Positions 7,651 through 62,665 of a stretch of DNA of 64,000 nucleotides are shown in pieces. The stretch lies in NCBI GenBank assembly GCA_000165345.1, contig CM000435.1, positions 32,001-96,000 on the forward strand, in the 5' to 3' direction. The notes beneath the pieces were generated by a model. It searched no databases, had not been told where the DNA came from, and saw only the letters and a list, made by a program, of their open reading frames with translations. The translations under genes and the position numbers were made by a program. Position 1 is the stretch's first letter, and each line of letters begins with the position of its first letter.

Positions 7651-8571
7651 TTTCGCTCTTTATGTTTATAGTAAATACTATCTATAAATATATTTTAATA
7701 TATATAATTTATTAATTCTGAATCCGCTATTGTCCTTCCTACTATGATACTCTCAGTAGAGTCTCGTTCGGATTACTACCGTTTCTCCTTACCCTCTTAT
7801 ATTCTTAAGAATTGTTTTCTATTGGGAATTCCAAACCTGTGCATTTTACATTCCGTATATTTACAATTGCGTACAACTTTTTAGTACTATGCGTATGATG
7901 ACGTGTCTTTTTTGAAGAAAAATTTATATGTAAATCCAAAAATAGCGAGACAACAATTAAGACCTACAGTTTCATTTTTAGGAATCTGCTTGTTTTTTTA
8001 CTAAATTATTCAAATCTAATTTTAAATTTCTGATATCTTGTCGTATTGCAAATTTCTTGCTTGCATGTAAATCCTGCATGCATAGTGATTTCTACATACC
8101 GGCATCAATCTAAAAGCGTAGGAAGAGAGGGGCAAAAAAAAAAGGCAGATTTGAGTTATTATGTATTAAATGTCCAGTACAATAACAACCTTGGGACTTC
8201 AGCTGATACTAACACCTGTATTAAGACAACACATATAATGTATAGAGGTCTTTGATACAGTCAATTTTTGAGTAATAGCCTCAAAATCCCGAGATATGAA
8301 TTGTTCATCTCAACTAAACTAGCTGAAAACCTATGTTTTTAAGTCTAACTAAGATCTGACTTTAGTGTCCTTCAATTATACAGAATTTAAAACTTGATAA
8401 GTAGCATCTGTAGCGGCATGCCAATAAACCATCACCTTATATTACGTTGTTATCTACATGGTAGTCTTCGTATGCATTCACAAACATTCTATATAAGAGA
8501 TCAAGCACTCCCATGAATATTTGTTCACAAAACAAGGAAACCGAGTAGAAACAATCGTATTGGGTAACGAT

Positions 8572-9361
8572 TTACAAACGACGACCACGTCTACCACCTT
8601 TTCTTCTGGTGCTATCAGTTGGAATTGGAGTAACATCCTCGATACGGCCAATCTTCATTCCAGCACGAGCTAAAGCTCTAAGAGCTGATTGAGCTCCCGG
8701 ACCCATTGTCTTTGACTTGACTCCACCAACAGCTCTGAGCTTAATATGTAAAGCATGAATTCCGAATTCCTTGCATTTTTGAGCAACATCAACAGCTGCC
8801 ATCATAGCTGCATATGGAGAGTTTTCATCACGATCTGCTTTAACCTTCATTCCACCAGTAACTCTTACGATGGTTTCTCTTCCTGACAAGTCAGTTACGT
8901 GAATGAATGTATCATTGAAAGAGGCGAATATATGAGCCACAGCGAAGTTTGTTTGTCCCTCACGAACCTAAATAAATTTTAAAAAATCAGTTATTCATGT
9001 TCAAATTATACCATCAATATTATAGAGTTTCGTCCAGAATGACCTAGTTCGATGATCTAAGCAAATAATCCCTGATCATATATATATTACTTTAGTATCG
9101 CAAAAACCAGTAAAGTGACGGATTATTTTGATACTTTTGTTTAAGTACAGAGAGTGATATCTCATTTGTACAAAGACAGAAAATTTTAGGGACTTGCATT
9201 TAATTGCCTAGTCATTAAACTATAGAATTGAAAACAGAATTAAAAAAAAACTCTGACTCAATTCATAGTCATAACATCTATATACACTCCACTCCAATAT
9301 AACAACTTACCTGCTGGAATGGGACATCAGCAACTTGAGTTTCCTTCTTCTTTGGAGCCAT
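8572..9361 (-). CDS. RPS14: 40S ribosomal protein S14 (uS11). Two exons: join(8572..8967, 9311..9361) on the minus strand
   Basis: Exon 1 (51 nt) encodes [17 protein letters not shown] and ends at a GTAAGT donor (9310..9305). A 343-nt intron ends in TTATTTAG, and exon 2 resumes [48 protein letters not shown]...[10 protein letters not shown] with a TAA stop. This is near-universal uS11 sequence. The ORF-track entry begins at an internal GTG. Confidence 0.9.
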
Positions 9362-9780
9362 TTTACCGTTGATTATCTCAAATTTCAGCTATTATGAGAA
9401 AAATTAATGTTGCAATTTGCTTAATTACAACTGGTAACGAATTATCGATGTTTCCTTATTTTGCTTTTTTTTCGGAGACAGACTTATTTTAACAGGCGCC
9501 AATTTTAATATTATTAATATTAATAATTATTAGACAGGCCAAATATAACTTCTGTCCGCATTATTACATTAATTTTTATGTCAAAAGTTATAATAAATCA
9601 GCGCCAATCTTTTCCTAATATGACCTTAAAATTCACTTTTGAAGACGTATCATTTATTTATTATAGAATATATTGGGGCCTAGACGGGAAAAATGGTAAA
9701 GCAAATGTAGCTATAGTATAGAGGCATGAAAAAACTGAGAAAATTTATTACAAGTATTTAAAAAATGTTAAGAGATCTAA

Positions 9781-10794
9781 TTAGTTATTTTTGTGTGTTT
9801 TGTCATTAAATATAAATTTTGAAAGTTTGTATACCAAATTTAATCTAGAAAACACTTTATATACTATTAATGTCAATGTAATACTTAATAAGATGGATCC
9901 AATTATTTGGAAGAATAGTATTGGGAGCCCAAATTTGAAATATTCGAGTTCTAGGAACATTTAATTAGTGACCGTGATACCCCTTGACATTGGTTTTAGA
10001 ACTTACCTATATTTAGCAAGATGTTCTTAGATTGTATTTGCTTATCATAAGATACATTCTTTAACTTTGCGACCACTTTAAAAGTCACAAATTGTTGACC
10101 TTGTTGGTCATAACTTAGAAATTTTTGCTATTATTGTTAATTAGTTTTTGTATTTAAAATATAAAAACTTACTTTTTGGCTGTTAAGTAATTCATTATTT
10201 GTGAAAACTAGAGAACTTGGAAGTACTTTATCAAGTATTTTATCTAAAAAACTTTGAGATATATTATATTCTGAAGTTCATTAATTTGAAAATAATTTAT
10301 TAATTTTGTATTTTGCTATATAAACTCACTTTCTTCAGAAATTAATGGGATTATATTAAATTCTCCTTGAGGATCCTATAATATTTGTGAATTCTCTCAT
10401 TTCAAAACAAATTAACCATCTCCACTCGAGAACTTACTGGCCCAGCAGAAAAGCATTCAAATTGGTATCTTCCATCAATGAGATCTTTCTTATTCACATT
10501 TATTATTAATGGATAATCTTATATTCAAGAATGAATTGTCAAGTTACACAATAATTGATCAATATTACTTACTTATATTCATTTTAATGCCATAATATGG
10601 CTTTCCTGGCAAAATTATAATATTATTCTCCATACCAGACTTAGAAAAGAAACCCAGTAATTATCATGTTTAACAATTAATGTTTTGTCTTATTATTATC
10701 TTACCTTGTCCAATGGCCTTTCAGACTTGGAAAATAAGACCAAAAAGGTGCTAATTAAGAATAGGTAAGCAGAGAACCTGCTTATAACTTTCAT
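9781..10794 (-). CDS. Seven-exon gene for a ~223-aa small type-I membrane protein (signal peptide plus one C-terminal TM); family unassigned; absent from the ORF track
   Basis: Hand-spliced on the minus strand: join(9781..9950, 10007..10127, 10173..10270, 10330..10375, 10438..10517, 10573..10639, 10705..10794). Every donor is GTAAG(T/A) or GTGAGT and every acceptor is YAG. Introns are 45-65 nt and the phase is continuous. Protein: MKVISRFSAYLFLISTFLVLFSKSERPLDK|SGMENNIIILPGKPYYGIKMNI|NYPLIINVNKKDLIDGRYQFECFSAGP|DPQGEFNIIPLISEE|KYNISQSFLDKILDKVLPSSLVFTNNELLNSQK|QKFLSYDQQGQQFVTFKVVAKLKNVSYDKQIQSKNILLNI|ELEYFKFGLPILFFQIIGSILLSITLTLIVYKVFSRL...KNN*. Confidence 0.45.
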
Positions 10795-60584: not shown

Positions 60585-60659
60585 TATGAATTATAAATAA
60601 ATAATTAGTAGAATTATATATGTATATGTATGAATATATATATACATCAATTTAGTTCC

Positions 60660-61817
60660 TTAAAGGAACTTGAATGTAACCTGTTCGAGTATTTTCTCTT
60701 GAACAATATTGTCAATGTTGTTGGAGGTGTTGTCAATAGAGGTAACTGAGGATAGTTTTCCAATAGTTTTGACAAGATAACTTTGAATTTCTCTAATATT
60801 GTCAATGTTGTTATGATATTTTGAGTTTAGGATTCCCTTGCTTCTTTGTTGAAATCTTTGTATGTGTTCTTCAATATCTTGAATATATATTAGAAAAGTA
60901 CTTAGATTTGCATTTTCAAGATTTGCAAGAGATTGGATTCTTTCAAACAATGAGGGGGTAATATGAACTCCTTCTAGAATGATACTTTTTTCCTTATTAA
61001 CAAAATTCTTAATAATTTCATAAATATAATCTTCTATAATTGATGATTGTATTAGGTATCCAAGCACAATAGACGATTCTGAATATTGATCCTTATATTT
61101 TTGTGTTTGTTGAGTAGTGGTATATTTATGTACTTCATAAGTTGAACAATTAAGAGCCTTGTTGTGTTTATATTTTTCTGTAGATCTCAATACGTGTCTA
61201 ATAGTATCGGTAGAAATAACGCATTTGACTCTTAAAAATGATGCCAAGTAAGAGCTTATAGTGCTTTTTCCACTACCTGAAGTACCTGCTATTAATATAA
61301 TATTAGGTTTAACAGAAAAGTCTGAGAATAAATGAATTAGGCATTTTTTGATTAGATGATTGACTTTTTCAATTATTTCATTTTTTTGGACTTTGTTTTT
61401 CGAACAAGCAAGATATTTTTCAAATTTGCATTGAGATAACGGAAAAGAAATCAAATATGGCAAATTTTTAAAGTAGCAGAATATGCGATTAAGCTGAGAA
61501 AAATTATTATTATTTAGTATTAGATTCTCTAAATAATCCATACAAATCGATAAATCTTTGCCTGTTATTCCAGATAAAATGTATAGTTTACAAACCCAGC
61601 TTCTAGTTAAAATAACATTGTTTTTTAGAATATTATTATTATAAGAATTTTTGCAATATTTATTAGGATCTAGAAAACAGCTTTCTATATCCTTCAGAGT
61701 TAGGTTGCTTTTGGGATTGTGATGATCAAAAAACTTAAACTCATTTGAATGATTTTCGGTACTGTCCTCTTCAAATATACCCACAATTTCCCAGTCAACT
61801 TGATGGTATTTTGCCAT
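60660..61817 (-). CDS. P-loop NTPase, probably a small-molecule kinase of the 2-phosphoglycerate-kinase-like family
   Basis: 385-aa ORF with an ATG start. Walker A (IILIAGTSGSGKSTIS) is followed closely by VISTDTIRHVLRS, as in the 2-PGK-like AAA_33/zeta-toxin-type kinases. The N-terminal ~160 aa are of unrecognised family. Confidence 0.5.
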   Translation of the reverse strand: MAKYHQVDWEIVGIFEEDSTENHSNEFKFFDHHNPKSNLTLKDIESCFLDPNKYCKNSYNNNILKNNVILTRSWVCKLYILSGITGKDLSICMDYLENLILNNNNFSQLNRIFCYFKNLPYLISFPLSQCKFEKYLACSKNKVQKNEIIEKVNHLIKKCLIHLFSDFSVKPNIILIAGTSGSGKSTISSYLASFLRVKCVISTDTIRHVLRSTEKYKHNKALNCSTYEVHKYTTTQQTQKYKDQYSESSIVLGYLIQSSIIEDYIYEIIKNFVNKEKSIILEGVHITPSLFERIQSLANLENANLSTFLIYIQDIEEHIQRFQQRSKGILNSKYHNNIDNIREIQSYLVKTIGKLSSVTSIDNTSNNIDNIVQEKILEQVTFKFL

Positions 61818-62665
61818 GAAACTACGTAAAGTACCTTGCTAAAAGATTTAGTTATATTTAATTGTTTGAATTAGAGCGGCTCCTCCTTTTATTTATTTAA
61901 TATTGTTTATATATTACAATTAATTCGGAATCCCATTAAATGAGAGTATTGCGACTATTAGGGGGGGAAAATAGGATAAGAGCTGATTATTAATCATACA
62001 TTTCATGACAAAATAGAATAACTTCTCGTAATTATTCGATAGTATGTTGTATTTTAGCAAATTCAGAAATATTTATTATTTTTTTTAGCTCAATTTGGAT
62101 TATAGAAAAAAAAGACAACCCGCCAAAATTTGGAAAATTAATATTGCATGCAGAATGTGAATAGCCAGAATAACAGAAATATTGGAAGTTATCATATTTT
62201 TAATATCCAGATTGTTTTTTAAATAAATTTCAGTAGGTATGACGGAATTAAAAATTAAAATCTGGTTCAAAATCTGAACAATTTTGAGTGTTAATAGTTA
62301 TATTATTTCATTAAATATATATATATATATATATATATTTTTTTTTTTTTTTTTGACTCAATTTATACCAAAAAAAGCCAAACACTATTGCTTGCATGCA
62401 ATCTCCACGTAATATTACAAGTTGCATGGCATAATAATCCACATAGTGCATGTTTCTCGCAACCCCACTTATGTAGAATTGACTTAGAAAAAAAGTACCG
62501 AGTCATTTTTTTTTCTCACTTGATTTTAATAGTAATATAATAAATTTCAAAAGTTTCAAATCTATTTCAACAGGAAATAGCAATCAAAGCAAGAGAAGTT
62601 TGTTTTGTTACTAGTTTAATACAGGGAAGATTAAAATTAACAATTGCCGGAATTTTGTGGTCAAA

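Follow-up and report, generated by a model that had tools for sequence, protein, structure and literature searches.

The window analysed here, 64,000 nucleotides of a Cryptosporidium parvum-type chromosome 7 (GenBank assembly GCA_000165345.1, contig CM000435.1, positions 32,001 to 96,000 of the forward strand), carries genes cgd7_100 to cgd7_400 and several copies of the palindromic octamer TGCATGCA. These copies raise the question of whether they are regulatory sites and, if so, whether they tell a gene at which life stage it is to be expressed. A preliminary description of the same DNA had taken them for ApiAP2-type sites and had suggested stage-regulated expression from their density in front of a CCp adhesin gene and genes for secreted proteins. 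We conclude, with a probability of about 0.85, that the octamers are known AP2_1-class cis-regulatory elements, that is, palindromic sites for TGCAT-recognising ApiAP2 factors, in the short promoters of a subset of the chromosome 7 genes.

The octamer is enriched in the window. Over its whole length we found 12 exact matches at 11 loci (8075, 13612, 13616, 28528, 34341, 37162, 44364, 44430, 49218, 55701, 62145 and 62393), compared to a mean of 0.67 and a maximum of 3 in dinucleotide-preserving shuffles. None of 100 shuffles reached 12. With a complete gene map obtained from public gene calls around four proteins of the window, 11 of the 12 matches fell in intergenic DNA, which accounts for 25.6% of the window (binomial P = 3e-6). 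When intergenic 8-mers were ranked under an order-3 Markov model, TGCATGCA came first, with 11 loci versus 0.56 expected. The intergenic sites were restricted to promoter-bearing regions, divergent or tandem, and none lay in the nine convergent regions, which total only 1.5 kb. The sites are also clustered: an additional TGCATG/CATGCA half-site was present within 70 bp at 7 of the 10 intergenic loci versus 0.9 expected, two of the loci counting each other. The single coding match (49218) is about what chance would give.

An excess of this kind could in principle be compositional, or the remnant of a dispersed repeat. Expectations for both-strand counts under order-4 and order-5 Markov models (7.0 and 16.2) indeed come near the observed 22; they do so because the sub-words of TGCATGCA are themselves enriched. 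The flanks of the sites are mutually unrelated, so that the copies do not form a repeat family, and both the shuffles and the intergenic bias speak against chance, as does conservation. We compared syntenic loci, all with identical gene order, from three clades, C. canis, C. bovis/xiaoi and C. muris/andersoni. They cover the centre of the window in C. canis (L011), C. bovis (L012) and C. muris (L013), its left part in C. xiaoi (L014) and C. muris (L015), and its right part in C. bovis (L016) and C. andersoni (L017). In an unbiased word test on 24 orthologous intergenic regions, there were six cases in which every one of the three clades kept TGCATG in the orthologous region, versus 1.3 when regions were permuted, and five such cases for TTGCATG versus 0.7, the best result of all words other than pure A/T ones. 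Conservation is specific to particular promoters, and the distribution of TGCATG is nearly all-or-none: six regions have it in every clade (upstream of cgd7_150, 146aa/dynamitin, VIT1/amine oxidase, kinase/Rad21, Rad21/CCp2 and 385aa/cgd7_400; aa, amino acids) and nine have it in no species. The motif is thus kept at orthologous promoters where intergenic DNA is otherwise barely alignable. Chance is excluded by the shuffles, the 24-region word test and the per-region conservation table, and we give an origin in composition or repeats practically no weight. Judging from this pattern, selection appears to have maintained the sites at orthologous promoters in the six regions, three parvum loci being excepted. 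The C. canis locus has a G+C content of 45%, compared to 30-33% in the other species; its motif positions in the CCp2 and kinase/Rad21 promoters are still the same.

The AP2_1 motif is already well known in C. parvum. It is motif 1, BGCATGCAH, of Oberstaller 2013 (PMC3734150), is also credited to Bankier 2003, Mullapudi 2007 and Oberstaller 2014, and, according to Oberstaller 2013, had been reported before that from chromosome 6 non-coding DNA and from the upstream regions of glycolysis genes. The octamer fits the protein-binding-microarray (PBM) consensus [T/C]GCATGC[A/G], to which the cgd2_3490 AP2 domain binds in vitro, as does that of its Plasmodium orthologue PF14_0633/AP2-Sp (PMC3734150). 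Three additional C. parvum TGCAT binders, cgd1_3520, cgd8_3230 and cgd5_4250, come from the 2014 array study (PMC4117751), and with four such binders the assignment to the ApiAP2 type stands. A 2025 review tabulates TGCATGCA as AP2_1 together with the stages of its binders, the female-specific cgd2_3490 and AP2-F included. Factors of the same specificity thus differ in stage, cgd8_3230 being asexual and cgd2_3490 female.

The same letters might instead work as an RNA-level signal, with UGCAUG in untranslated regions (UTRs) read by an RNA-binding protein that controls stability or translation, for example in translational repression in female gametes. RBFOX proteins read UGCAUG in animals, and the sites at 13612, 55701 and 37162, close to stop codons or ATGs, could fall in UTRs. 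However, it is the full 8-bp palindrome that is enriched and not the hexamer alone, as expected of a dimer-bound site in double-stranded DNA, and AP2 domains bind exactly this DNA in vitro. In addition, the sites at 28528, 34341 and 62145 lie in divergent promoters, some 300-430 bp from start codons, and are unlikely to be within short UTRs. We know of no RBFOX-type factor in C. parvum and consider a signal in RNA very improbable.

Whether AP2_1 sites convey stage is a further question. The motif is found upstream of ~1,034 genes in 55 expression clusters of varied timing (PMC3734150) and at least one TGCAT-binding AP2 is expressed at each time point (PMC4117751), so the motif alone does not specify stage. 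These facts would equally suit a general promoter or open-chromatin element that acts through a constitutive factor or nucleosome exclusion and holds no stage information, and so would the unrelated nature of the flanked genes in the window (PKA-R, VIT1, amine oxidase, kinase, GLE1 and secreted proteins). Yet the octamer occurs in only 8 of the 23 promoter-bearing regions, which, with the nine intergenic regions that have half-sites in no species, indicates that the motif is not universal. The promoters of ribosomal-protein genes RPS14 (9362-10315) and RPL18A (45313-46627) have no GCATGC. Moreover, cgd7_150 and cgd7_300, whose sites lie less than 100 bp from the ATG, share co-expression cluster 103, which also holds CpCCp1, in the portion of the published cluster data covered here. 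A general element without stage information is therefore an unlikely explanation.

In the same portion, cgd7_120 (PKA-R) belongs to cluster 86 and cgd7_400 to cluster 122, and clusters 86, 103 and 122 all appear in the published list of clusters with over-representation of motif 1. The suggestion of stage-regulated expression was thus right for cgd7_150 and cgd7_300, is plausible for two more genes and is unsupported for the rest.

Several points weigh against assigning all of these octamers to the AP2_1 class as functional sites. Cluster 28 (Rad21) and cluster 115 (kinase) are absent from the motif-1 cluster list, as far as that list was covered. Neither the bovis nor the gastric clade conserves the sites at 8075, 44364/44430 and 55701, TGCATG being confined to the parvum lineage in the regions upstream of PKA-R, between GLE1 and RPL18A, and between BiP and the hydrolase; these sites may be young or neutral. 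Two of them, 55701 and 44364-44430, are separated from the nearest start codon by ~600-900 bp, a long distance in so compact a genome. The TGCAT binders of the PBM paper are cgd8_3230, cgd1_3520, cgd5_4250 and cgd2_3490, and the link of AP2-F (cgd4_1110) to the TGCATGCA motif is indirect because only the 2025 review lists it as AP2_1-like. Finally, binding at the sites of the window in the parasite and their activity in transcription are inferred.

Under the AP2_1 reading, TGCAT-specific AP2 domains would most likely bind the palindrome in double-stranded promoter DNA. The octamers often sit inside small conserved modules with CCCCACA/ATGTGGA (G-box-like), E2F-like GCCCGCC and TACCGG(C/T)A. 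Homotypic clusters of octamer and TGCATG half-sites, together with such neighbouring words, would set which promoters respond and when. The octamer would serve as a shared docking point, because several AP2 proteins of one specificity are produced at different stages of the life cycle; timing would depend on which of them is present and on the co-motifs nearby, rather than on the octamer.

The promoter of CCp2 (cgd7_300; ATG at 37239) holds the densest proximal site cluster in the window. The preliminary description had correctly placed an octamer at 37162, but its two GCATGCGCATG variants are in fact GCGCATGCAT (37098) and ATGCGCATGT (~37133). The order of elements, TACCGG followed by two to four TGCATG/GCATGC and then ATGTGGA, is retained in C. 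canis, C. bovis and C. muris (alignment A1), and hence in all four species, although the C. muris sequence is otherwise barely alignable. The TACCGG word is found upstream of CCp2 in 4/4 species with CCGGT invariant, and in two tandem copies in C. muris. ATGTGGA (37142-37148, inside GTATGTGGACAGG) lies just upstream of the proximal TGCATGCA in 4/4 species (including L011, L012 and L013) and resembles a string published for cluster 124, TTGTATGTGGAAA, which is classed as G-box-like in the part of the source covered. Conditional ablation of the female factor AP2-F lowers 15 transcripts besides its own, including that of cgd7_300 (Tandel 2023, PMC10233709), which falls 2.2-fold (log2 fold change -1.16; PMC10233709 Data Set S1). 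Activation of CCp2 is thus probably female-stage and AP2-F-dependent, directly or indirectly. A homologue search with CCp2 returned orthologues only and no paralogues. Since it is compact, keeps a conserved three-word order and belongs to a female-specific, AP2-F-dependent gene, the CCp2 promoter lends itself well to study with the reporter and conditional-knockout tools that now exist for the parasite.

The ranking of intergenic 8-mers also brought up a second word, TACCGGCA, with 5 loci versus 0.2 expected. In the wider form TACCGG(C/T)A, or TACCGGYA, it has 7 loci, every one of them intergenic (8097, 10925, 14880, 14900, 22489, 28519, 37081 and 44377), giving 9 strand matches versus 0.5 expected from shuffles. 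Four of the five copies of TACCGGCA (8097, 28519, 37081 and 44377) lie 1-14 bp from (T)GCATGC(A). When the window was pooled with five other loci, 21 intergenic and 8 coding copies of TACCGG/CCGGTA were counted in DNA that is ~24% intergenic (P = 5e-8), and TGCATG lay within 40 bp of 12 of these 21 intergenic sites versus 1.7 expected (0/5,000 simulations); because orthologous positions are included, the pooled counts are not all independent. In the parvum window alone, TGCATG was within 40 bp at 4 of the 8 intergenic TACCGG/CCGGTA sites versus 0.7 expected (P = 0.003). In the VIT1/amine-oxidase block the word is kept in parvum, canis and bovis, and both divergent promoters in which it stands without TGCATG still have it in C. 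xiaoi. New TACCGG-TGCATG composites have arisen elsewhere, in 146aa/dynamitin in C. muris and in 385aa/347aa in C. bovis. The typical arrangement places TACCGGYA distally, followed after 1-20 bp by (T)GCATGC(A) and then the gene.

The 25 published motifs do not include TACCGGYA, and the only similar strings in the part of the publication covered are the MEME/AlignACE strings CCGGCAAATTTTGGCG and GCCGGCA, both filed as E2F-like. In the part of the literature that was searched, TACCGG/CCGGTA was met in primer sequences only, with no description as a regulatory word, and the texts of the AP2 array papers on Plasmodium and Cryptosporidium and of the de novo study from 2007 give no motif that contains CCGG. 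We considered whether the word is an E2F variant and rejected this identity, because TACCGGCA and TACCGGTA lack the GCGC/GCGG core of [A/T][C/G]GCGC[G/C][A/T]. We tentatively propose, at a little under even odds, that TACCGG(C/T)A is an undescribed, genus-wide Cryptosporidium cis-regulatory word and a partner of the AP2_1 site. It could give the widely shared TGCATGCA a promoter- or stage-specific meaning, and its reader could be a second DNA-binding domain: another AP2 domain within a multi-domain factor (AP2-F, for example), one of the AP2 domains lacking an assigned array motif, or a Myb or zinc-finger protein. For candidate AP2 domains, TACCGGCATTGCATGCA is the test sequence that we name. 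The plant DRE (TACCGACAT) resembles TACCGGCAT and is a lead only. TACCGT words adjoin TACCGGTA in two divergent promoters (ataccgttat, 10905-10915; gataccgtcta, 14866-14876). CCGTTA is the classic Myb core, and a Myb-type reader for the TACCGT/TACCGG word family is worth considering. If TACCGG(C/T)A is both real and undescribed, it offers a concrete route into how a motif shared by many AP2s yields stage-specific expression.

Candidate AP2_1 and TACCGG(C/T)A sites and modules in the window (positions are those of the window; ORF, open reading frame)
Feature	Position	Strand	Composition and placement
PKA-R site	8075..8082	.	TGCATGCA 425 bp upstream of cgd7_120 ATG (7650); extra TGCATG at 8062; TACCGGCA at 8097
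98aa/SprT divergent promoter	10925..10932	.	palindromic TACCGGTA, no TGCATG nearby
cgd7_150 site	13612..13623	.	tandem overlapping TGCATGCATGCA, 84-95 bp upstream of ATG
Methyltransferase/WD40 divergent promoter	14880..14907	.	TACCGGTA and TACCGGTG
146aa/dynamitin intergenic region	17315..17436	.	four TGCATG/CATGCA half-sites, no perfect octamer
Arf upstream	22489..22496	+	lone TACCGGCA, 147 bp upstream of ATG
VIT1/amine-oxidase divergent promoter	28519..28535	.	composite TACCGGCA-T-TGCATGCA; then G-box-like CCCCACA at 28554 and GCATGCA at 28597
Kinase (cgd7_280)/Rad21 divergent promoter block, ~138 bp	34240..34377	.	CACGTG, ACACAC, CCCCACA (G-box), GCCCGCC (E2F-like), TGCATGCA at 34341-34348
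CCp2 (cgd7_300) promoter module	37081..37169	.	TGCCGGTA at 37081 (-158), GCATGCA at 37100 (-139), ATGCGCATGTATGTGGA at ~37133-37148, TGCATGCA at 37162 (-77)
GLE1/RPL18A cluster	44356..44437	.	TGCATGCT-TGCATGCA at 44356-44371; TACCGGCA at 44377; TGCATGCA at 44430
GRASP coding-sequence doublet	49218..49234	.	TGCATGCA-AT-TGCATGC (10 bp apart), poorly conserved C-terminal region
BiP downstream	55701..55740	.	TGCATGCA, CATGCA at 55712, TGCATG at 55735; 143 bp past BiP stop codon, 906 bp before hydrolase ATG
385-aa gene, divergent promoter	62145..62152	.	TGCATGCA 328 bp upstream
cgd7_400	62393..62452	.	TGCATGCA and two TGCATG half-sites (62423, 62447), 214-273 bp upstream of ATG

The sites are collected in the table. 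The site list of the preliminary description was right in its coordinates save for small slips, and missed 62145 and 49218 (GRASP coding). Exact matches were found where it had placed octamers upstream of PKA-R (8075), in tandem upstream of the gene at 12866 (13612), downstream of BiP (55701) and upstream of the gene at 62666 (62393). Its amine-oxidase octamer exists, one base further on (28528 and not 28527), in a promoter divergent with VIT1. That at 34341, assigned to Rad21, is present and closer to the divergent kinase cgd7_280 (382 bp from its ATG versus 654 bp from that of Rad21). The copy at 44430 was confirmed, while the supposed doubled copy at 44356 turned out to begin with an imperfect one, TGCATGCT, after which the perfect copy comes at 44364. 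The 146aa/dynamitin region had escaped notice because it contains no perfect octamer.

Among the deeply conserved sites, the one of cgd7_150 lies ~100 bp past the methyltransferase stop codon and precedes a gene for a 220-aa product with a signal peptide and a C-terminal transmembrane segment; the C. xiaoi orthologue has TGCATGCA 78 bp upstream and C. muris retains a TGCATG half-site. The region orthologous to 146aa/dynamitin has TGCATGCA in C. xiaoi and TACCGGTA..CCGGTA..TGCATGCA in C. muris. The VIT1/amine-oxidase octamer is ~400-430 bp from each of the two ATGs, within a block, TCGATACCGG[CT][AG]T..CATGCA..CCCCACAT, that is kept in C. canis and C. bovis (alignment A2). The kinase/Rad21 block is almost identical in C. 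canis and mostly retained in C. bovis (alignment A3), and the intergenic region has TGCATGCA in 4/4 species. This block looks like a compact regulatory module; it may instead be a small non-coding transcript. The counterpart of 62145 in C. bovis is TACCGGTA-8 bp-TGCATG, 312 bp from the orthologous ATG.

The lineage-specific sites behave differently from these. No counterpart of 8075 was seen in C. xiaoi or C. muris, and 55701 is absent from C. bovis and C. andersoni. The GLE1/RPL18A cluster stands 590-670 bp ahead of the ATG of GLE1, on the downstream side of RPL18A; one GCATGC is left of it in C. canis, and neither C. bovis nor C. muris has it. It yielded no ORF and no tRNA or Rfam match. Three intergenic regions (43766-44754, 55559-56606 and 45313-46627), at ~1-1.3 kb, are unusually long for a compact genome and hold no called gene, and distal TGCATGCA clusters lie in two of the three. 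These regions may harbour unannotated transcripts or long UTRs. Scans of the entire window with Rfam (gathering threshold) and for tRNAs gave no matches, and in 43.8-44.7 kb only short, unconvincing ORFs were found.

For the GRASP coding site, we considered and rejected a conserved internal element: the GCATGCA copies in GRASP of other species stand at non-homologous positions in a low-complexity region and were taken as background. TGCATGCA or GCATGCA occurs in the GRASP coding sequence of every species examined (L012 21668-21679; L013 23373; L017 4472); these copies could be due to chance or to an internal or antisense promoter.

Three further loci carry TACCGG(C/T)A only. The C. xiaoi region orthologous to 98aa/SprT has two CCGGTA copies, and in methyltransferase/WD40 the 12-mer GTCTATACCGGT is identical in C. 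xiaoi. The TACCGGCA upstream of Arf (22489) is not kept in C. xiaoi or C. muris.

The gene numbering is anchored by cgd7_120 (PKA regulatory subunit), cgd7_250, cgd7_280 (cdc28-like kinase), cgd7_290 (RAD21), cgd7_300 (CpCCP2, 184.5 kDa), cgd7_320 (RPL18a) and cgd7_400 (signal-peptide protein). The 1,674-aa LCCL protein encoded at 37239-42263 is identical residue for residue on CP141124.1 (GCA_035232765.1) and in many Cryptosporidium sequencing runs, and of its named relatives CpCCP2 of C. tyzzeri, C. canis, C. bovis and C. muris come closest to it. Pfam agrees with the PKA-R, amine oxidase, Rad21, CCp/LCCL and BiP identities given earlier, and signal-peptide-like N-termini and published annotations agree with the two genes called secreted (12866 and 62666).

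The motif itself is a rediscovery of one of the best-documented promoter motifs in Apicomplexa and as such changes little. What the analysis offers in practice is a map, checked to the base, of putative AP2 sites in ~10 promoters of C. parvum chromosome 7. To this it adds a candidate partner motif, TACCGG(C/T)A, and a conservation-based triage into deeply conserved sites (cgd7_150, 146aa/dynamitin, VIT1/amine oxidase, kinase/Rad21, CCp2 and 385aa/cgd7_400), lineage-specific ones (PKA-R, GLE1/RPL18A and BiP downstream) and a probably incidental one (the GRASP coding site).

Compared with AP2_1 of C. parvum as published, organism, sequence and non-coding enrichment are the same, and four of the flanked genes are in motif-positive clusters in the portion of the cluster data covered. 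Nothing essential differs; the additions are the site map from cgd7_100 to cgd7_400, the cross-species footprints and TACCGG(C/T)A. The AP2-F regulon of female and crystalloid-body genes (Tandel 2023) is similar in that cgd7_300 is among its 15 lowered genes and a review calls AP2-F AP2_1-like. It differs in that cgd7_120, cgd7_150, cgd7_270, cgd7_290 and cgd7_400 are outside the differential list (PMC10233709) and that AP2-F binding at the CCp2 promoter is putative. The Plasmodium AP2-Sp/AP2-EXP regulon (PF3D7_1466400, PBANKA_132980), needed for sporozoite gene expression in P. berghei (PMC3734150), shares the identical palindrome and an orthologous AP2 domain (cgd2_3490), but its target sets are reported to be rewired relative to Cryptosporidium (PMC4117751), where the specificity is common to several AP2 proteins.

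Toxoplasma TRP-2, [T/C]GCATGC[G/A] of ribosomal-protein promoters, has the same core and acts alongside a second word, TRP-1, and this pair sets a precedent for a two-word module. In contrast to that system, the RPS14 and RPL18A promoters of the window lack the motif, consistent with the use of E2F and GAGA by C. parvum ribosomal genes (PMC3734150), and TACCGG(C/T)A is unlike TRP-1.

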